56,460 nt of DNA from an uncultured virus (IMG/VR IMGVR_UViG_2061766007_000806) (Duplodnaviria > Heunggongvirae > Uroviricota > Caudoviricetes), in IMG/VR virus record IMGVR_UViG_2061766007_000806; one strand, 5' to 3'. Made by a program: the position numbers and the translations under genes. Position 1 is the stretch's first letter. Every line of letters begins with the position of its first letter. This document shows, piece by piece, positions 2,972 to 44,674 of the stretch. A model generated the notes under the pieces. It was not told the origin of the DNA, did no database searches, and was given only the letters and a program-made list of their open reading frames with translations.

Positions 2972-3511
2972 TTAGGTTATAGCTTTGGTGTAATCTATAT
3001 AATCCACTTGGATTGTGAAACTGTATTTGGCAAGTGCTGGCTTAATCTGAGTATCCACGCCGTTAAGAACGGGATTATCAGTAAGCACTTTCATGGAATC
3101 CACTATGCACTTATCGCCGAAATCAGGAAACTGTCGGTTGTCAGCCTGTTCCTCTATCCAATCGATTATCCCTTGGACGTCGATAAACTCTTCCACGTTT
3201 TCATTGTTGATAGGCTGTGAGGATATACCTGTATTATTATTTGTTGTTGTGGTTGTTGATTGCGTGGTCGTAGTTACGACTTCCTTGGGAATCGGTTGAT
3301 AGGTCGCTGACCTAAAATCTATCAATGTAAACGTATAACGCTTAAGCACACTGCCGTTTATGAACGGTCTATGCGTCCGTGCTTCGTTGCCAACGGTCAC
3401 GAACTGTTTATTATCGGGCTTGGCATTGATAAAATTAAAGAACAGTGGGTTATCTCGGATTTGGGGGCATTGACATATGAAGTTAATCATAGCTTCTTCT
3501 TTACTTGCCAT
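2972..3511 (-). CDS. Putative tail terminator / neck protein
   Basis: Start MASKEEAMINFI at 3511; C-terminal AKYSFTIQVDY strand; position before major tail gene. Confidence 0.6.
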   Translation of the reverse strand: MASKEEAMINFICQCPQIRDNPLFFNFINAKPDNKQFVTVGNEARTHRPFINGSVLKRYTFTLIDFRSATYQPIPKEVVTTTTQSTTTTTNNNTGISSQPINNENVEEFIDVQGIIDWIEEQADNRQFPDFGDKCIVDSMKVLTDNPVLNGVDTQIKPALAKYSFTIQVDYIDYTKAIT

Positions 3512-3870: not shown

Positions 3871-4000
3871 TCAAATCCCCTGTGCTAGATAGTGAGGGAG
3901 ACCTCTTCCTGCTCCCGTGTTATTGGAAGCCTTCTGTATCTCCAAGCACCCCTGTAACTCTTTATATTTAGCAATCAGGTCGGTTGACCTGTGCCCTTTG
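3871..4000 (-). CDS. Head-closure protein, C-terminal part
   Basis: Manual translation KGHRSTDLIAKYKELQGCLEIQKASNNTGAGRGLPHYLAQGI*; completes 5675-5983. Confidence 0.6.
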
Positions 4001-29196: not shown

Positions 29197-30153
29197 TTAA
29201 TCTTTTGTAAAAGCTCCAAACTTTTCTTCAATATTCTTCGGATTGCCCTTAAAGAACACTAATACGTTTTGGTGATGGCGTCCTACCTTCCTTGATTGTT
29301 CAAAGTACTTCGGGCATCTGACACCCAAACTCATTATCCTGTTCTCTAATATCATCTCGTTATAGAACTTATAGCCACAGTCTGTAAACGCCTTGATAGT
29401 GTCGGGCACGAATCCATACATTATGCCGTTAGGGTCTCGTATCTCCTCTACCACTATAACTGCAAAGCTGTCATCCTCAAGGATGTTGTATGCCTGATAT
29501 ATAATGTCCCTGTACTTACCACGGAACTGTTCGTATGTCTTGCAAGCGCTTAAATCCCTCTCATCGTCCGAATAGATTTCAAGGTTATAGTACGGAGGGC
29601 ACGTAAGTAACATGTTGTACTTCTTCTGCGCATAGTCTAGGCACTTTATCTCGGCTAAACTGTCGCCACATATCCACGTCGGCTTGCCAAAATCTTCAGA
29701 CTCGTACAGCTCTGATATTTTCTCCCAATTTTCTCTATTAGCTGCAACCTGAACCTCATTCAGGTCTACACCGTAATAGTCTCGTCCAAGTATCGCCGAC
29801 ACAGCTCCTCTCACATGTCCACCTGCGAATGGGTCGAACACTGTATCTCCCTGTCGGCTGAACCAACGAACCAATATCTCACAAAGGAACGGGTCGAATG
29901 TACTGATGTTTCCATTGCGCTCAAGCCCCTTATAGCCAATATCATAATCGAACTTGTTGATATAAGGCGTGTTAGATTTAGCTGTTATGTTCCTGACGTT
30001 AGCTGACCTGTTCTTCAGTATGTACTCCCACTCGTTACGCTTCTTCAGCCACTCTCCCACCTGAGAATCTAAAATGGAAAAAGGGGGCACAAGATAGCGC
30101 TCCCGTAATGATTTAGTTGGTAATTTTAATCTTTCTTGAGTGAATAAAGGCAT
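29197..30153 (-). CDS. N4-C/N6-A DNA methyltransferase
   Basis: FDPFAGG SAM-binding motif and TCPPY catalytic motif. Confidence 0.85.
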   Translation of the reverse strand: MPLFTQERLKLPTKSLRERYLVPPFSILDSQVGEWLKKRNEWEYILKNRSANVRNITAKSNTPYINKFDYDIGYKGLERNGNISTFDPFLCEILVRWFSRQGDTVFDPFAGGHVRGAVSAILGRDYYGVDLNEVQVAANRENWEKISELYESEDFGKPTWICGDSLAEIKCLDYAQKKYNMLLTCPPYYNLEIYSDDERDLSACKTYEQFRGKYRDIIYQAYNILEDDSFAVIVVEEIRDPNGIMYGFVPDTIKAFTDCGYKFYNEMILENRIMSLGVRCPKYFEQSRKVGRHHQNVLVFFKGNPKNIEEKFGAFTKD

Positions 30154-31189
30154 GTTTTAACTCCTCATATGCTTTCGATTTCTTGATTGAGTAAAAGAAA
30201 TATGTGTCCCACACGTAATGTAAGTCGTGTATCGGATAGCCTGTCTCCTGTTCGAGCGTGTTGAGCAACACCTCAAGGCAATGGATATAATAATCCCTGT
30301 TATATTCTAGCACATCATGGTCGCAAAACCACACATATTCAGTCGCACATTTCCAACAGCAACCACATCGATAAGGCATCAAATCGATTGTGTAGTTCCT
30401 CATCGTTCTCCTCCTGAACAGCTTTCGGAATCTGTTCGGAGTCAGACAACTGATAGTCAATGGTAAATGCTCGGGCTCTTTCAGTAACAGGTCATATGCT
30501 GTTTGGAAGTTCTTGTTTGGTATGTACATTTGGAATGACGGTATTACTTTCTGTATGATTGCCTCGTACAGCTTCCACATTTCCACTGTATCGCCTGCGC
30601 ATACCTCAAAGGCTACGTCGGCTATGTGTGCTGTTTTGAATGTACCCACAGCTATCTTAGTACTTATGCCGTTCTTTATGCCCCAAGATAACGCCATGGT
30701 TGCCATTATCATATTCTTCATAGGGTGCTCTATCCAACAGTGCGTCCCCTTATAGGCTACGCTGTCAATATATAACGGGACACCTAGCTTCTCAGCCATC
30801 TTCTCGGCTACTTCCCACTCATCGTAGTAGGTCTTATTTAAACCCTTGATATGATAGGCGTACACGTTATAGCCAAGCTTCTGATAATGCCTTATGACGG
30901 AAAAGCTGTCTTTGCCTCCCGAATAGCACACAATGATGTTCTTAGAATCCATCTGAGGCAACGGAATCGGTGTGAAACGTTGCTCTTCAAACTCCATATG
31001 TGGGAACGAATACCCCGACATCTTCTCGAATGTCTTAAGAATCGGATAAAACGTGTTATCATATGGCTGAACAAACAGCTTCGGCTTTGGTCTCTTCGGC
31101 GGCTCGGAAAGCTCGGCATACATCCTCTCAAGGTCGGTAAAGATACAGGATAACTCATAATAATCGCTCGTATGCTTTATTGTCTGCAT
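30113..31189 (-). CDS. QueC-like PP-loop ATPase
   Basis: VCYSGGKDS PP-loop; TISC...CGCCWKC zinc site; EHPMKN where QueC has VPxRN. Confidence 0.7.
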   Translation of the reverse strand: MQTIKHTSDYYELSCIFTDLERMYAELSEPPKRPKPKLFVQPYDNTFYPILKTFEKMSGYSFPHMEFEEQRFTPIPLPQMDSKNIIVCYSGGKDSFSVIRHYQKLGYNVYAYHIKGLNKTYYDEWEVAEKMAEKLGVPLYIDSVAYKGTHCWIEHPMKNMIMATMALSWGIKNGISTKIAVGTFKTAHIADVAFEVCAGDTVEMWKLYEAIIQKVIPSFQMYIPNKNFQTAYDLLLKEPEHLPLTISCLTPNRFRKLFRRRTMRNYTIDLMPYRCGCCWKCATEYVWFCDHDVLEYNRDYYIHCLEVLLNTLEQETGYPIHDLHYVWDTYFFYSIKKSKAYEELKHAFIHSRKIKITN

Positions 31190-31996: not shown

Positions 31997-32157
31997 TCGT
32001 TTAAATCTCCATCATCATCGTCATCATTATCTTCTTCATCTTCCACTCTTCCACGTGAGCTAGGCTTCTTATCATCCTTCTCTACTGACCCACACATCAG
32101 CATACACATCCACTCAGCATCGCTCATACCTTCAGGTTTGTAAAACGTCTTTCCCAT
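31993..32157 (-). CDS. Small protein with acidic tail
   Basis: Manual translation MGKTFYKPEGMSDAEWMCMLMCGSVE...DDDDGDLNE*; fills the dnaX-holB gap. Confidence 0.5.
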   Translation of the reverse strand: MGKTFYKPEGMSDAEWMCMLMCGSVEKDDKKPSSRGRVEDEEDNDDDDDGDLNE

Positions 32158-34231
32158 CTGTCAAACTCCCTACGCAAAAACTATAAAGGTTCGCTTCAAT
32201 AACAGCCTTGGGATAATTGTCCCACTTAATGGCTGTATTAAGTGACAACAGCATCTTCAGCAACTCATTGCACTCGGTATAATAAAGGGCTTGCGTCATC
32301 CTTACTTCAATGGCGTCCTTGTAATAATTCGGAATCTGTGTAAATTCCAATGTTCCTGTAACGGCATATTTGCAAAGGTCAAGCACAAAATTCGTGAAAT
32401 TCCTGACAAACAGCTTCAGGTCTTTGCCCTGTTTATGTAAATCTTCTATGGTCGAAATAACCCTCCTAGGACTGTTACCGTCATTGTCAATCAGGTCATC
32501 CACGAGGTGTAGCATCTTGTCGTAATTGACTGTTCCGATTGCTGTAACCACATTCTCAACAGTAAGCTTATTAGAATAAGCTAAGCATTTATCCATCAAT
32601 GTAATGGCATCTCTCATACCTCCATCTGCTATTTTTGCGATATACTCAAGGGCATCATGTTCATATGTATATGTCTGTCCCATATCGTATGCTTCGTAAG
32701 GCTCATTCTCTAGGTTAAGTATCAACTGTAATCTGTCCACAATGCCTTGCTGACTTATACGCTGAAAATCGTATCTCTGTACCCTTGAAAGAATCGTCTT
32801 GGGTATCTTCTGTGGGTCTGTGGTACAAAAGATAAATATCGCCGTCTCAGGGGGCTCTTCAAGAAGCTTTAACATAGCTTGCCATGCTGAACCTGATAAT
32901 GCGTGGCAATTTCCTGTCACAAAAACAAAGCCCTCTGACCTAACAACTATCTTATGACTTGGAACTTTAACACAATAAACTGTTCCATCAAAGTACTCTG
33001 TTTCTACGGTCTTTTGTATCGCCTGACAAGATGAGTATCTAGAATCCCTTAAAAACACATTATAACGTGTTTTATATGTCTCCTTACGTTCATCCGACTG
33101 TGCCCTTAATCTTGCTGAATATCCACCCAATGTTGCCACTGCCATTACAAAATCGCTATTTTCCTTACAAGTTGAAATATACTGAACATAATTATCAGAC
33201 ACATATCCATCCCACTGTACAACTTCTTGAATAAATTCTCTTGCTGTAAAGTAATCAAAAGAATCTATACTGAAATGTGTAGACAACATCTTACTTGACG
33301 ATATTGGTAAGTCATAAGTGAATCTACGCACTCCATCTCTTCCCTTAATCTCAGAATAATGGATATTTCCACTCTTGCACAAATTAATAAATCTGTCCAC
33401 CTTACGCTGTTTTGTGAGTTGAATCGACCAATGCACATATCCACCTTTTTTAGATACTCTTTGAATCGTACCATCAGCCTGACTTGCAATAACAAGTCTG
33501 TCAACAGGTGTGAGTACTGTCTTGCTTCCTTTTCCACACCCTGCCACAATAAGACTAGCAATTTGGCTGAACTTAGTATCTTGGATATATTGCTCTCGGA
33601 TAGTTCCTGACCTATGATGATATAAAGGCTGTACATGATGTGGTGTCATTCTAACACTGCACCAATTTCTAGGAGACCACTTTACCAAATCTCCCTTATA
33701 GGGCATTCTTACCCACTCATGTGGACTGACAAATATTATGCTTCCATCATCGTTATACTGTGCGACTTGCTCTGTTCCATCACAAGCATCAAATCGCTTA
33801 AACCCTTGTGTTGTAAGGATTTCCACATCACCTGTCATACATTCGTCTACGATGAAAATCCTGTATTTACTCCCATCCAAGGTAGCCATACGGGATTGCT
33901 NNNNNNNNNNCTCATCAATGATGAAAATCCTGTATTTACTCCCATCCAAGGTAGCCATACGGGATTGCTGAATAATATTTCTAACATCATTGACGCTATT
34001 ATTGCTTGCTGCGTCCATTTCCATCGGGACACCCTGTCCCTGATTTATCTCATTGGCGAATATCCTCGCCGTTGTAGTCTTTCCTGTGCCTGCTCCACCA
34101 CAAAACAGGTAAGCGTGGCGTATTTCTCCACTCTCAAGCTGTTGAGACAGGATAGTTTTTACACTACCCTGTTCAACAACGTCATCAAATGTCTGAGGTC
34201 TGTATTTAACAGCAAGGGCTATTGTGCTCAT
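32132..34231 (-). CDS. dnaX: Clamp loader gamma/tau subunit (DnaX-like) with intein
   Basis: LAVKYRPQTF, GGAGTGKTT, MDAAS, IVDE|intein|CHALS, LLEEPP, TILSR, GGMRDAI. Confidence 0.95.
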   Translation of the reverse strand: MSTIALAVKYRPQTFDDVVEQGSVKTILSQQLESGEIRHAYLFCGGAGTGKTTTARIFANEINQGQGVPMEMDAASNNSVNDVRNIIQQSRMATLDGSKYRIFIIDEXXXXQSRMATLDGSKYRIFIVDECMTGDVEILTTQGFKRFDACDGTEQVAQYNDDGSIIFVSPHEWVRMPYKGDLVKWSPRNWCSVRMTPHHVQPLYHHRSGTIREQYIQDTKFSQIASLIVAGCGKGSKTVLTPVDRLVIASQADGTIQRVSKKGGYVHWSIQLTKQRKVDRFINLCKSGNIHYSEIKGRDGVRRFTYDLPISSSKMLSTHFSIDSFDYFTAREFIQEVVQWDGYVSDNYVQYISTCKENSDFVMAVATLGGYSARLRAQSDERKETYKTRYNVFLRDSRYSSCQAIQKTVETEYFDGTVYCVKVPSHKIVVRSEGFVFVTGNCHALSGSAWQAMLKLLEEPPETAIFIFCTTDPQKIPKTILSRVQRYDFQRISQQGIVDRLQLILNLENEPYEAYDMGQTYTYEHDALEYIAKIADGGMRDAITLMDKCLAYSNKLTVENVVTAIGTVNYDKMLHLVDDLIDNDGNSPRRVISTIEDLHKQGKDLKLFVRNFTNFVLDLCKYAVTGTLEFTQIPNYYKDAIEVRMTQALYYTECNELLKMLLSLNTAIKWDNYPKAVIEANLYSFCVGSLTDGKDVLQT
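32909..33841 (-). mobile_element. 311-aa intein with LAGLIDADG-like endonuclease region in DnaX Walker B
   Basis: Starts CMTGDVEILTTQG, ends VYCVKVP...FVTGN followed by Cys; IASQADG and VVQWDG helices. Confidence 0.9.
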
Positions 34232-40080: not shown

Positions 40081-40785
40081 CTAAAACAATCCTTTCCTGA
40101 CGTTATCAAAAATATTCTCCGTACTTGTTTTCGGACACGCCCCCTCTTGTTTCGGGTACGGGAGTATGTCGTATTTCAACTTAGCTAACAGCTCCTTCTT
40201 GCGCTTCTTATCACAGTTAAAATAGATGTACCTGTGCTTGTGTGACCTCTCCTTAGCATAAATATTAGCACCGTTAGCCATTGCCTTCTTTATGCCTTCC
40301 ACCCCACCATATCGCTCACTAACTGATTTGTGATGGAGCACTTTACCATCTTTCTCTATCTCCACATAGTCGGTATGGTTGCCTTGTGTGATGCCTGTGT
40401 AATAGAAATTCGTAGCCTGATATATTATGCCGACATGGTTATAACCTATATCGGAAAAGCTCACTATAATCTCCTTATCGAGCATCTTCAAGGTATTGCC
40501 GACTAAATAGGATTCCAAGTTCCTCTCTAAGCCGTCATCGACGTATAGCCTCGTAAGCTCATAGACATTGTACTTTTCTTCCACGCCACATATCTGTTCG
40601 CACAAACCGTTACTTACGGGACTTCCATAAATCACCACGCCCACAATTCGGTTCAGCTTCCTCGAAAATAATCCGAAAGCTCTCGTGTAGGGAGCTGCCC
40701 GGTGAGCGTAGTGGCACTTAATCACAATGTCGGTAGCTGTTTGGTAATTGACCTCCTGAATATAGTAATCGTCCTTTATGCTCAT
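40081..40785 (-). CDS. Mom-like (GNAT) DNA adenine modification acetyltransferase
   Basis: HY...FGLF...GVVIYG.P...ELTRL...SFSD...H.GIIYQATNFYYTG...KHRY. Confidence 0.85.
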   Translation of the reverse strand: MSIKDDYYIQEVNYQTATDIVIKCHYAHRAAPYTRAFGLFSRKLNRIVGVVIYGSPVSNGLCEQICGVEEKYNVYELTRLYVDDGLERNLESYLVGNTLKMLDKEIIVSFSDIGYNHVGIIYQATNFYYTGITQGNHTDYVEIEKDGKVLHHKSVSERYGGVEGIKKAMANGANIYAKERSHKHRYIYFNCDKKRKKELLAKLKYDILPYPKQEGACPKTSTENIFDNVRKGLF

Positions 40786-41816
40786 TCCTCTTCTTCCTCT
40801 TCATCTTCAAACTCAAGCTCGACACCATACCAACACTTGGATACAGTTACATCGCACTTGATTGGCATTCCTAATATCTTCTCAGCCGCATTACTCATTG
40901 TCTGTGCTAACAAGGCTGAACACTCCTTAGCATTGGTCTCAGGACATTCAGCTATTATCTCATCATGCACGGGAATCAGCATCTTAAATCCAAGTTCCTT
41001 CAGACGCTTGTTAGCAAACAGGTCTATCATCGCTAACTTGGTCAAGTCGGCTGCACTTCCCTGTATTCGGGCATTAACACACTGTCGGGTCGCTGACGCT
41101 ATCTTGGTCTTGTTGCTGACAATATCTATACCATCAGCCTCGGCATCAGCAAATATCTTTTCACGTTCCCTCTTGTATCGGGCTGACATCAGCCTGTTCC
41201 AATAATAATCACAAAGTTCATCGGGTACGCTATCATCCGAGATTGTATCAAAATCCAAAGGGTCGTCGTATGGGTTCTTCTGAGGGTTTATCCACTTGAA
41301 ATCATACTCAGGTAACTGTAAATCGGGTAATCTCCTCTTGCGCCCACACACGGTAGTTACATATCCGAGTTCGTGCGCCATCTCTAGGCTGTCATGCTCG
41401 AATTTTTTAATAGCTGGAAATCCTTGGAACACGGAGTCTTTTATCGCCTGTGCCTCGTCCTCCGAACAGTGTAGTTGCTCAGCGACGCTCGCCGTGCTTC
41501 GTCCGTACAGCACACCTAACAGGATACTCTTGGCATTGCCACGGTACAGCTTGCCTTCAGGATTGGTCTTATCAGTCTTGTTGCCATGCTCATCTAGATA
41601 GAACTCGAGACAGTCCACATAATCCCTGTGGAAAGACACGCTCGCTATCTCAGCATACAGGTCTTTACCCTCCATAAAGGTGTTATACATCTGTGAATCA
41701 CCCTGTTGCCGACATAATGCCGCTAAGCATTTGGGTTCTTGCTGTGACTTTTTATGTTAAGAAAAGTCACTACTCAATAGCACATAATTTCTACGAGTTA
41801 GTAACTTTTTTGACAT
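40782..41816 (-). CDS. polA: Family A DNA polymerase, C-terminal half, with in-frame TAA at 41757-41759 (candidate ribosomal bypass)
   Basis: [28 protein letters not shown]...DLY...[14 protein letters not shown] (motif B)...[10 protein letters not shown]...VHDE (motif C); GGGGGTG RBS before ATG 41816. Confidence 0.85.
41744..41770 (-). other. Stop-containing hairpin inside polymerase motif A (putative recoding element)
   Basis: GUGACUUUU-CUUAACAUA-AAAAGUCAC perfect 9-bp stem; codons UCU UAA CAU AAA AAG UCA. Confidence 0.75.
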
Positions 41817-42252
41817 CCATATCACCCCCTCGGTTAGACAAAAACTGCCCATTTTTCTTATCTCTTCGATTTTCTAAATCTAGCTTGTGATACTCTTTTT
41901 GATGTTCACTTCTAGTCGTAAGCTCAAGATTTTCAAACCTGTTATCCAATCTGTCACCGTTTTTATGATGTACCACTTCATCACTAGTCAACGGACGTCC
42001 TAAATGCTCTTCCATAACCTTACGATGTACAAAATATCTTGCACCTTTTACAGACACACACGCATAGCCATCGTATATGTAAGTTCTCGGCTTTCGGTCT
42101 CCTCCACGTCTATTAGCGATACCCATAGCCACTACTTTATGAAGTATGGATGATTGAGACCTGTTTAAGTGATTTGCGCATTTGACTACTCCAAGAGTTT
42201 CATAATTAGCAAACAACCAAGCTTCATCTTCTTTTGACCACCATTTTCGCAT
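41791..42252 (-). CDS. Free-standing HNH homing endonuclease inserted in polA
   Basis: VHRKVME.HLGRPL...[20 protein letters not shown]....H; N-terminal WSKEDE Myb/HTH-like domain. Confidence 0.9.
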
Positions 42253-42299
42253 ATGACTTTCACCCCCTTACAAGGAATATTCTATCACATAAAGGGATA

Positions 42300-43883
42300 T
42301 TATGCAAGACTTATTACATAACTATTATTATATTTGTCATACTTAAGTTGAATATCACAGATTGTAGCTTCAGTCCCGTCCTCGAACTTCAGTATATCAC
42401 CTACGCTTAGCTTAGATGCTAATTTCCAACCAGCACTTGTAACCACTTCACACCAACGCTCAACAACAATAGTGTTATCATGCTCCTCTACTTCTCGCTC
42501 TGAACAATCAGCCACAAAAGATTTACGAATATCGTGATTCTTAGAGGGCAAATTCTGCAAGTTGGGGTCGTTACTTGAAAATCGTCCTGTGTCAGCGCCA
42601 TACTGATTGAATGAACAGTGAATCCTGTTATCCTTAGCCTCAACACAATTTGGTAGCTTATCAATATAGGTGCTGACTAGCTTCTCAAACTTCCTGTACG
42701 CTAAGACAGCCTTGCATATCGGATGGTCGATACTACCGAGAATTGCTTTTCCTGTCCCTCTGATTGGCTTCTTGGTGCGCTTATCCACGCCTGCATCTAA
42801 CTTCAGTATATCAAACAGAAATGTCTCAAGCTGAGAAGGGCTAGCCACGTTAATCGGGACATCGAGCTTCAGTTTCGGATGCGCCTGTTTATACGCCTGA
42901 ACATCCTTCTCATACGGCTTCAACAGCTCGTGCAATTCCTTCAGTTGGTCATCCAACAGCCCATGATATTTGGTCGCAAGCTCCTGATTGTAGGCGAAGT
43001 CAAAAGCCACGCCTGTATCTTCCATGTCCACCACGACATTGACGATAGGCATCTCTATGTTCTGAAATACCCATGCTACGCCGTTCATGCCGTTCCTGTC
43101 CTCAGGTGTGGTTGTTGGGTCGTATGTCAAGTAGGGTCTTTGGAAGTCGCAATATTCTGTTGTAATCACAGGGTCATGCCCTGCATAAAGCAAGGCTGTA
43201 TCCAACGGGATGTTTGTAAAGGGTACTTTCTTGAACAGGTCGTCGAATGCAAAGGCATCGCCCTCTCCATGCAAGCAATACTTATTATGGAGCTGTTTCA
43301 AGCCCTTCTGAGACTTGGGCTCGTTTTCGTTCATCAGCCTTGAGCCTATAGAAGCGTCCCATGTGCAATAAGTATCTACTATCCCGAATGCCTTCATAAA
43401 CCGAATATCGAATGCTGCGTTGAACATATCTATATCAGGTCGCCACTTATAGTTCAATAATTCTTCAAACTCCCGTATGATTATCTCAGGAGGGAGCTGT
43501 CCCTTTATAAGCTCGCCTGTAATATAGTTTATGTGGTTTATTGGGATATATGCGCCCTTTTCTCCACGTCCGTTGATACAAATACCTGCTATTCTATGTT
43601 GAAACGGATTTAAGCCTTCCGTCTCGGTATCGATTGAAATATATCTGTTGTCACGACAAGACTTCAGGTAATTGTGTAGTTGTTCCTCGCCCATGATGAG
43701 AATGTGCTTGTCTCGATATTCTCCGAGTGCTGAATCAACCTTGTGAACAATATTCTGAATCTGACTAGCAAGACCTCCACCCCGTACTGAAGTGGAGGTC
43801 TTTTTAGCCTTGCTTTTTACCTTCTGAAGTATTGCCTTATCCTGACTTGCGCCCTGTCGTATCGGAACATCGAATAACGGCAT
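42300..43883 (-). CDS. polA: Family A DNA polymerase, N-terminal half (3'-5' exonuclease + thumb/palm start) with Hint-like tail
   Basis: SIDTETEGL, FNAAFD, YAGHD, TGRFSSNDPNLQNLP..IRKSFVA, then EVVTSAGWKLASKLSVGDIL. Confidence 0.92.
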   Translation of the reverse strand: MPLFDVPIRQGASQDKAILQKVKSKAKKTSTSVRGGGLASQIQNIVHKVDSALGEYRDKHILIMGEEQLHNYLKSCRDNRYISIDTETEGLNPFQHRIAGICINGRGEKGAYIPINHINYITGELIKGQLPPEIIIREFEELLNYKWRPDIDMFNAAFDIRFMKAFGIVDTYCTWDASIGSRLMNENEPKSQKGLKQLHNKYCLHGEGDAFAFDDLFKKVPFTNIPLDTALLYAGHDPVITTEYCDFQRPYLTYDPTTTPEDRNGMNGVAWVFQNIEMPIVNVVVDMEDTGVAFDFAYNQELATKYHGLLDDQLKELHELLKPYEKDVQAYKQAHPKLKLDVPINVASPSQLETFLFDILKLDAGVDKRTKKPIRGTGKAILGSIDHPICKAVLAYRKFEKLVSTYIDKLPNCVEAKDNRIHCSFNQYGADTGRFSSNDPNLQNLPSKNHDIRKSFVADCSEREVEEHDNTIVVERWCEVVTSAGWKLASKLSVGDILKFEDGTEATICDIQLKYDKYNNSYVISLA

Positions 43884-44601: not shown

Positions 44602-44674
44602 CAGCCCTTGGTGGATTTGAACCACCGAATCAGGGAGTCAAAGTCCCTTGCCTTAACCACTTGGCTAAAAGGCT
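44602..44674 (-). tRNA. tRNA-Gln(UUG), no encoded CCA
   Basis: Acceptor AGCCTTT/AAGGGCT, D arm GCCAAGTGGTTAAGGC, anticodon arm AGGGA-CTTTGAC-TCCCT, T arm GGTGG-TTCAAAT-CCACC. Confidence 0.92.

Follow-up and report, generated by a model that had tools for sequence, protein, structure and literature searches.

The 56,460-nt stretch of DNA analysed here, from an uncultured Caudoviricetes virus (IMG/VR IMGVR_UViG_2061766007_000806) and called the window at its full length, carries on its minus strand a DNA polymerase gene (polA) that is divided by a free-standing HNH endonuclease gene into an upstream half, polA-N, and a downstream half, polA-C, the latter being further interrupted by a short coding gap within its catalytic motif A. 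The gene could be assigned to the family A DNA polymerases by its exonuclease and polymerase domains and by Pfam matches over both halves. No close DNA relatives were found among cultured phages, the sole match being a 53-nt stretch of the HNH gene in Streptomyces phages, and the best polymerase of a cultured phage, that of Clostridium phage phiCTP1, is 42% identical and encoded by an uninterrupted gene. The features of the locus are as follows.

43883-42300, minus strand: polA-N open reading frame (ORF), 527 aa
42507..43883, minus strand: polymerase part of polA-N, with the 3'-5' exonuclease, the thumb and the start of the polymerase domain up to DIRKSFVAD (Pfam DNA_pol_A_exo1, and DNA_pol_A at profile positions 3-149; alignment with phiCTP1)
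42300..42506, minus strand: C-terminal extension (CTE) of polA-N, 68 non-polymerase residues and the stop, a small beta domain common to all split relatives
42252-41791, minus strand: free-standing HNH gene between the polymerase halves, 153 aa (Pfam HNH_3, E 2.4e-15; PHROG HNH endonuclease families, best 5.5e-19)
41821..41831, minus strand: GAGGGGGTGAT, the Shine-Dalgarno (SD) sequence of polA-C, located within the HNH ORF near its 3' end
41790..41816, minus strand: start codon and N-terminal extension (NTE) of polA-C, a basic leader conserved in split relatives
41760..41789, minus strand: codons of the native motif A strand with the catalytic Asp, aligning with GYVLMSSDFS of uninterrupted relatives and ending in the proposed take-off codon TCT (41762-41760)
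41745..41759, minus strand: coding gap of 15 nt, TAA CAT AAA AAG TCA, consisting of a stop, a spacer and the codon TCA (41747-41745) proposed for landing, with CAG 41744 as the codon where decoding would start again
41744..41770, minus strand: hairpin GTGACTTTT-CTTAACATA-AAAAGTCAC, 9-bp stem and 9-nt loop
40782..41744, minus strand: remainder of polA-C, which starts with QQEPK, contains motifs B and C and ends at the stop (49% identity to the phiCTP1 polymerase; from 41690 on, Pfam DNA_pol_A with E 8.4e-43)

A first-pass annotation, made from the letters of this DNA, had placed the stop of polA-N at 42300, the HNH gene at 42252-41791 and the restart of polA-C at ATG 41816 with its own ribosome-binding site, and had put a hairpin insert close behind the HNH stop; all of these coordinates were confirmed, and the hairpin begins 21 nt past the HNH stop. 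In all tblastn matches against 1059 phage records, the likeness of polA-N to family A polymerases ends at residue 458-459, within NHDIRKSFVAD. The start codon of polA-C (ATG, 41816-41814) sits 5-7 nt past GAGGGGGTGAT within the 3' end of the HNH ORF, and reading from it yields 19 codons and then TAA at 41759-41757, the same frame running on to 40782. Alignment with phiCTP1 and five uninterrupted metagenomic relatives (polA-C is 60-88% identical to metagenomic relatives) gives the uninterrupted native sequence as F-x-A-S/T-x-G-YVLMSSDFSQQEPK. Compared with such relatives, the polymerase gene of the window holds two separate interruptions: a 717-nt block between FVAD and NYVLL, comprising the extension, a 47-nt spacer between polA-N and the HNH gene, the HNH gene itself and the new start, and 15 extra bases, TAACATAAAAAGTCA (41759-41745), which lie exactly between DFS and QQEPK of motif A as judged against 60 distinct uninterrupted relatives. 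Motif A is intact in the window only if these 15 nt are skipped.

The 15-nt form of the gap is not an assembly slip. It is carried with 0 differences by Logan contigs of runs X1 and X2, which are not independent because both may come from the window's own sample. A contig of run X5, from an unrelated study, is about 93% identical across 41500-42599, and its only indel is a lack of 9 bases at 41749, leaving TAGTCA, i.e., a gap of 6 nt at the same place.

Relatives of the polymerase were collected by a profile (protein-based) search of viral contigs, in which the best 80 of 244 loci were kept and their frames read, and by DNA pattern scans of viral, metagenome and metagenome-assembled genome (MAG) contigs. 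Since the pattern scans demanded TCN, TAR and TCA, the choice of codons is unbiased only in the 10 protein-found loci that carry the gap. True hits made up 13/20 in the viral contigs, 30/30 in the metagenome contigs and 2/2 in the MAG contigs. Two hits in the viral contigs were intact genes matched in another frame, namely L086, an uninterrupted polymerase, and L094, which encodes the same downstream protein and was dropped by analogy; five others (L088, L091, L093, L097 and L103) were rejected as unrelated DNA. Pooling the protein search with the pattern scans gave 56 loci in 35 distinct contexts. The two MAG contigs bearing the cassette (polymerase split plus gap) were labelled Paludibacteraceae and Firmicutes; binning of phage contigs is unreliable, hence no host is named.

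Among the best 80 of 244 loci, 10 were split with a gap at the same codon, one (L047) was split and had the leader without a gap, 66 were uninterrupted at this site and three (L031, L077 and L082) were left unassigned. The gap thus tracks the split, being found in 10/11 split loci and 0/66 unsplit loci. The nearest relative of the window in this set, L008 (87-88% identity in PolC), has an intact motif A. One of the unassigned loci, L082, has a single extra base (ACT AAG C GGT TAT, 3900-3930) exactly at the site where other phages are split by the cassette, which shifts the frame between LFGATK and GYILMSSDFS and may be explained as a scar, a +1 shift site or an error of sequencing. An SD site similar to GGAGGTGAT precedes the start of polA-C in 17/17 split loci whose sequences were printed, and every downstream half is preceded by an SD and opens with a start codon of its own. 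The polA-C of L047 has an apparent non-ATG start (ATT or ATA) after AGGAGG.

The distinct contexts are distributed over the gap lengths as follows.

Gap of 4 nt: 1 distinct context
Gap of 6 nt: 9 distinct contexts
Gap of 7 nt: 16 distinct contexts
Gap of 8 nt: 1 distinct context
Gap of 9 nt: 1 distinct context
Gap of 11 nt: 1 distinct context
Gap of 15 nt: 2 distinct contexts (the window and L113)
Gap of 16 nt: 4 distinct contexts

The 15-nt hairpin insert is therefore present in the window as first described, but it is one variant only: gaps of 6 and 7 nt are commonest, and the 93% identical relative has 6 nt. Despite the various lengths, the two borders follow strict rules. A stop codon directly behind the Ser codon of D[FY]S opens the gap in 35/35 contexts (TAG 32, TAA 3), and a Ser codon directly before QQEP closes it in 35/35. 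With TCA as the landing codon, the take-off codon is TCT in 30 contexts, TCG in three and TCC in one. In the 10 protein-found loci, take-off is at TCT in eight, TCC in one and AGT in one, and landing is at TCA in nine and AGT in one. For comparison, the corresponding single Ser codon of the 60 distinct uninterrupted sites is TCA in 22, AGT in 18, TCC in 8, TCT in 6, AGC in 4 and TCG in 2. Near-identical leaders bear a 6-nt or a 7-nt gap (L101 versus L102, L089).

These rules suggest a programmed stop-hop. A ribosome would start at ATG 41816 and read 19 codons, until peptidyl-tRNA(Ser) sits on TCT with TAA in the A site; it would then slide 15 nt, the same tRNA would re-pair with TCA, and decoding would resume at CAG. 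Such a hop would restore the uninterrupted DFSQQEPK motif, and the junction peptide would read LLSSDFSQQEPK. The AGT case (L023) bears directly on this proposal. Its sequence is AGT[TAGT]CAA, where take-off would be at AGT and landing at a second AGT 4 nt on, directly before QQEP and with the frame adjusted; this paired AGT/AGT change is what re-pairing of the tRNA predicts, and is needed by no other reading.

Ordinary +1 or -1 frameshifting, or readthrough of the stop, would place one to five extra residues in motif A. Readthrough could in principle serve the in-frame gaps (6, 9 and 15 nt; 12 of the 35 contexts), and a +1 shift at the stop, as occurs in prfB, would suit gaps of 4 and 7 nt. 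However, a separate mechanism would be needed for each gap length, with 8, 11 and 16 nt included, and TCT with its next bases is not slippery for tRNA(Ser). Fixed-frame reading, by readthrough or stop recoding, cannot serve all gaps because the lengths change the frame, not being multiples of three, in 23 of the 35 contexts. In addition, the D-x-S-x-Q-E spacing of motif A is invariant (D-to-E distance constant) in the 60 distinct uninterrupted sites, so that readthrough or frameshifting with inserted residues would break the motif. We consider this explanation very unlikely. Recoding of TAG was rejected as well, on the grounds that most gaps are not multiples of three and that the only tRNA of the window is an ordinary tRNA-Gln(TTG).

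Another explanation does without any hop: the polymerase could work as three pieces, i.e., polA-N, a 19-residue peptide with the catalytic Asp and an internally started C-terminal piece, or the gene could be dead and another polymerase used. The sequence taken literally does contain three ORFs, split polymerases held together non-covalently are described in the cited parts of Dassa 2009 (PMC2677866), and the conserved extension could clamp extra pieces. Nevertheless, neither the window nor most relatives have a start codon after the gap, a free peptide of 17-19 residues with a metal-binding Asp would be unprecedented, and the duplicated Ser codon, the AGT/AGT co-variation and the stop always right behind Ser would be left without a reason. 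As for a dead gene, the codons before the gap vary most at third positions (0.34, versus 0.24 and 0.17 at first and second positions; 32 distinct cassettes), as do those after it (0.59 versus 0.44 and 0.34), which indicates that both flanks of the gap are translated in those frames; such coding-type variation on both sides of the gap in 35 distinct cassettes argues against decay. Furthermore, no second polymerase gene was found in the 56-kb window, which may not be the whole genome. An arrangement in three pieces or a dead gene is thus unlikely.

Most gaps lie in a hairpin. In that of the window (41770-41744; -9.3 kcal/mol, z -2.0, with 9/200 shuffles folding as well), the take-off codon lies across the junction of 5' arm and loop, TAA is in the loop and the landing codon is in the 3' arm, and the same 9-bp stem is found in L113, the other context with a 15-nt gap. 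In most cassettes, the stop and landing codons are paired with codons that precede take-off, as in GUGACUA-UUCU-UAGUCAC of the 6-nt form. The mean fold energy is -7.1 kcal/mol in 30 cassette contexts, which are 4-16 nt longer, versus -3.0 kcal/mol in 58 uninterrupted ones, with mean z scores against shuffles of -1.6 and -0.3, respectively, and z below -2 in 12/30 versus 4/58. The hairpin may assist take-off, hide the stop, act at the DNA level or be a trace of the origin of the insert. In a 121-nt fold of the window (41700-41820, minus strand), the 5' arm of the take-off hairpin has the leader codons AAAAAGUUACUA as its partner in place of the downstream arm, so that two mutually exclusive structures could form around the take-off site.

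As the base of the hairpin brings the two junctions together, the gap might be removed from the mRNA by micro-splicing or editing, or skipped by RNA polymerase at the hairpin, and the message then translated in the ordinary way. Against this, no bacterial or phage mechanism is known for excising 4-16 nt, Rfam finds nothing at the gap region (41400-42900), the hairpins at some gaps are very weak, and removal from the mRNA would require neither a stop in first position nor matching Ser codons at both ends. Among the sequencing runs listed for 41500-42600 there was no RNA run, which speaks neither for nor against such removal. We regard removal or skipping at the RNA level as improbable.

The cassette that carries the split and the gap is scattered over the polymerase tree, in a pattern that points to mobility. 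In a quick IQ-TREE analysis of the C-terminal halves (PolC, 85 rows), 11 changes are required to explain the split-plus-gap state, and well-supported branches force at least 7 of them. Furthermore, a cassette-bearing locus (L018) and a cassette-free one (L014) are 98.5% identical over 2968 nt upstream; about 945 nt of cassette in the former stand in place of about 10 nt in the latter, and the first 120 nt downstream of the cassette, within which the gap lies, hold 23 differences. Beyond these 120 nt there are 0-3 differences per 60 nt, save one 60-nt interval about 500 nt downstream with 12. The same kind of difference separates L047 from L046.

Selfish inserts of several kinds are concentrated in this polymerase family. 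In L008 (1274-4747), a different GIY-YIG gene divides polA within motif B (GNAKS / ILLGVLYG); the C-terminal tail is short, the N-terminal leader has 47 residues, and there is no stop-led gap. In L016, a group I intron (3101-3348; Rfam 56.7 bits) interrupts polA at SSxDP/NLQN, and L023, L069 and L082 are interrupted at the same site without an Rfam match.

The gene found between the two halves differs among the 35 distinct cassettes, as listed here.

GIY-YIG gene: 18 distinct cassettes
HNH_3 gene (the window, L009, L116, L117 and L122): 5 distinct cassettes
No gene, polA-N being directly followed by the new start: 7 distinct cassettes
Other ORFs: 4 distinct cassettes
Too little sequence to classify: 1 distinct cassette

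The HNH genes of L009, L116, L117 and L122 are homologous to that of the window and lie at the same position, and a search of viral contigs for HNH relatives with their context returned no locus. In L047, two large ORFs (458 and 302 aa) lie between the halves in place of a nuclease gene. Because the nuclease differs or is absent among the cassettes, the gap belongs with the split cassette and not with one nuclease. The initial proposal linked the insert to this HNH gene; the insert does go with the split, but it is not tied to this HNH.

The extensions that flank the nuclease gene are conserved parts of the cassette. The CTE is represented by 15 distinct homologous versions, and its AlphaFold2 model (pLDDT 88.9) has six strands, for which the best structural matches are N-terminal halves of inteins and Hint domains: MchDnaB-1 (VIA Z 6.6, root-mean-square deviation 1.7 over 55 residues), followed by Prp8, PI-SceI domain I and gp41-1 (Foldseek E 0.016-0.05). 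A profile search of the PDB gave weak intein and BIL hits (E 0.05-0.9), and comparison with the intein-like insert of this phage's own clamp-loader gene gave a middling score (hhalign, E 0.13). Since the structural scores are middling, the predicted likeness to Hint should be taken as a lead only. The CTE had no hit in Pfam and only a chance hit among phages by tblastn (E 0.5), and a search of 5.8 billion proteins returned only the window's own cluster at near lengths (1/8 candidates) and 0/15 among longer proteins. The NTE, a basic leader of the form M-K/R-K-L/S-L/I-R/T-x-R-K, is present in all split relatives, the gap-less L047 included.

A classical self-splicing element, whether an active (split) intein or a group I intron with the HNH gene inside it, would be the familiar explanation for such an arrangement. 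Homing endonuclease genes are usually carried in introns or inteins, group I introns with an HNH gene occur in some Bacillus phage polymerase genes, the present polymerase family has a group I intron at another site (L016), the predicted fold of the CTE resembles the N-terminal half of the Hint fold, and the clamp-loader gene of this phage bears an intein-like insert. However, RF00028 gave no match at E<=10 in 41400-42900, where Rfam returned only a chance snoRNA-like match (E 9.3), and none at the gathering score in the cassettes of L009, L018 and L068, whereas the same Rfam library did detect the L016 intron. The stretch preceding the HNH gene codes for a conserved extension of the polA-N protein, and splice sites cannot be placed in frame so that the exon ends in U and the intron in G. 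The earlier statement that there is no room for a group I intron core was right in effect, this stretch being protein-coding and Rfam finding no core. With regard to an intein, CTE position 15, which aligns with intein residue 1, is V, T, I, M or E among the 15 members instead of a conserved Cys/Ser/Thr nucleophile, and the first CTE residue is likewise not conserved (DC, DN, RT, S, T). The NTE has 8-10 residues in place of the about 35 of a C-intein, lacks His-Asn and is followed by N/Q/S-Y-V-L (N-Y in the window) instead of Cys/Ser/Thr. Protein splicing is not expected, because intein residue 1 is unconserved and the NTE has only 8-10 residues. Moreover, neither an intron nor an intein explains the separate gap 30 nt downstream. 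A self-splicing element is therefore extremely improbable.

Given the above, it is reasonable to suggest that the family A DNA polymerase gene was invaded, immediately ahead of motif A, by a mobile homing-endonuclease cassette. To the upstream half, this cassette would add the CTE of about 65 residues, which lacks catalytic residues and is predicted to form a Hint-like beta fold; to the downstream half, it would add a new SD, a start codon and the short basic NTE. It would also bring a nuclease gene (HNH in the window) and, for about 120 nt, replace the coding sequence that follows with a version of its own, in which the short non-coding gap falls exactly between the DFS and QQEPK codons. With this anatomy, the polymerase would be made as two polypeptides, which presumably associate through the CTE and the NTE. 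A mobile homing cassette with a programmed stop-hop is the best reading of the locus and, in our judgement, a probable one, and we strongly infer the hop from comparison of the related sequences. As for its purpose, the gap would most likely disrupt the motif A DNA that is recognised by such nucleases and so spare cassette-bearing genomes, as has been reported for T4 MobA.

Several points weigh against this interpretation. The case for the hop is built on comparative sequence evidence, to which removal of the gap at the RNA level remains a rival, and the 35 contexts are not 35 independent trials because the cassettes share ancestry. The take-off and landing codons are synonymous and not identical in 34/35 contexts, so that a single tRNA(Ser) for both is an assumption. 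The hairpin is weak or absent in some cassettes (e.g., -1.9 kcal/mol in L117), and its arms would sit inside the ribosome at take-off, which obscures its role. Finally, the gap is kept in 7 nuclease-less cassettes and with two unrelated nuclease families, and immunity to this particular HNH is not singled out.

To our knowledge, T4 gene 60 offers the only bench-proven programmed bypassing in bacteria or phages. The locus had at first been described as an endonuclease-plus-bypass cassette like T4 39-mobA-60, and as a way of working this description has stood, in view of the recurrent design, the frame-independent gaps, the co-varying codons and the presence or absence of the cassette in near-identical phages, but the cassette is not a member of the T4 family. 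The cited passages of Manning & Atkins (bioRxiv 10.1101/2022.08.31.505936), where Bonocora et al. 2011 is cited for the T4 39/mobA/60 element, describe a nuclease gene that splits one essential gene at one place, with conserved tails on both halves; the bypass is kept after loss of the nuclease, some members keep the split and lose the bypass, MobA is replaceable by GIY-YIG or VSR, and the insertions are patchy and recent. In those passages, the T4 bypass cassette was called unique as of 2022. Our reading of the T4 gene 60 sequence places its gap in the catalytic motif DADHDG, where it opens with GGA TAG and lands on GGA.

Both systems share an essential replication gene split by a free-standing homing endonuclease gene, conserved extensions on both halves, a downstream half with its own start that soon meets a stop-led gap ending in a codon for the same amino acid, a hairpin at the take-off site, and a gap inside a catalytic metal-binding motif (DADHDG in T4, SSDFS/QQEPK in the window). 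In both, the gap persists when the nuclease is swapped (HNH, GIY-YIG) or lost, one member (here L047) is split without a gap, and the distribution among close relatives is patchy. In contrast, the host gene is topoisomerase II in T4 and a family A DNA polymerase here, the gap has 50 nt in T4 and 4-16 nt here with unrelated sequences, and the codons are GGA to GGA in T4 and Ser codons, TCT to TCA, here. Take-off is at codon 46 in T4 and would be at codon 17-19 here, so that any nascent-peptide signal must be short. Most hairpins here pair the codons before take-off with the stop and landing codons, whereas that of T4 lies downstream, and the upstream extension is predicted to be Hint-like here.

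Engineered stop-hops with matched codons around a stop have been made since 1987, with low efficiency, and the cited parts of a 2016 recoding review (PMC5009743) report no known natural case of an in-frame stop-hop and note a long-standing expectation of shorter counterparts to gene 60. TCT TAG TCA, the commonest natural form in our survey, likewise consists of a sense codon, a stop and a synonymous codon, and only one residue would result from the two Ser codons if the hop occurs; unlike the engineered cases, the hop here would be obligatory for an essential enzyme and would also operate with out-of-frame spacers. The fractured genes of Dassa et al. 2009 (PMC2677866), as far as the cited parts go, consist of split inteins whose halves are separated by a free-standing endonuclease gene. 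They share with the present cassettes the order of N-half, GIY-YIG or other nuclease, and C-half and the phage-like metagenomic origin, and the N-half extension of the present cassettes is predicted to be Hint-like, but here the intein-defining residues are missing, the C-side extension is far too short, and the coding gap has no counterpart in the fractured genes. In the same sources (PMC2677866; bioRxiv 10.1101/2022.08.31.505936), the nrdA of Aeh1 is split by a MobE-type HNH gene and a T4-like gp43 by a GIY-YIG gene; these are also replication genes fractured by a homing endonuclease without an intein or intron, with added tails and one resulting enzyme, but no bypass gap is reported for them in the cited passages.

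We found no description of a hop in a family A polymerase in open-access papers and bioRxiv. If the hop is true, it would represent a second origin of the endonuclease-plus-bypass design, in a different essential gene, and the minimal natural form of bypassing. Dozens of natural variants, in all three frames, with varied take-off codons and with or without a hairpin, would make the rules of take-off and landing directly testable, and the 35 natural variants would be a ready-made mutational series for the choice of landing site by the ribosome. Going further, and only tentatively, we could imagine a second, independently evolved family of obligatory programmed bypass, with minimal stop-hops of 4-16 nt in which the tRNA might leave a weakly paired UCU or UCG and be caught by a strongly paired UCA, aided by a hairpin that sequesters the stop and landing codons. 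HNH and GIY-YIG endonucleases might then use a modular kit, made of a clasp from an inactivated split intein, a new downstream start and the hop, to invade catalytic motifs of phage replication genes with the host gene kept alive. For annotation, gene callers will call such polymerases broken or report three ORFs.

Other features of the window accompany the polymerase locus. A Mom-like DNA modification gene (40081-40785, minus strand) overlaps the polA stop, a DNA methylase gene and a weak QueC-like gene lie among replication genes (29200-31189, minus strand), and the single tRNA gene, tRNA-Gln(TTG), is at 44602-44674 (minus strand). The clamp-loader (DnaX-like) gene (32135-34231, minus strand) holds the intein-like insert of about 300 residues, which opens with Cys directly after the Walker B sequence IFIVDE and closes with TGN before Cys. 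Upstream of this insert, a run of N (four X in the translation) is flanked by a duplicated stretch of 19 residues and looks like an assembly join.

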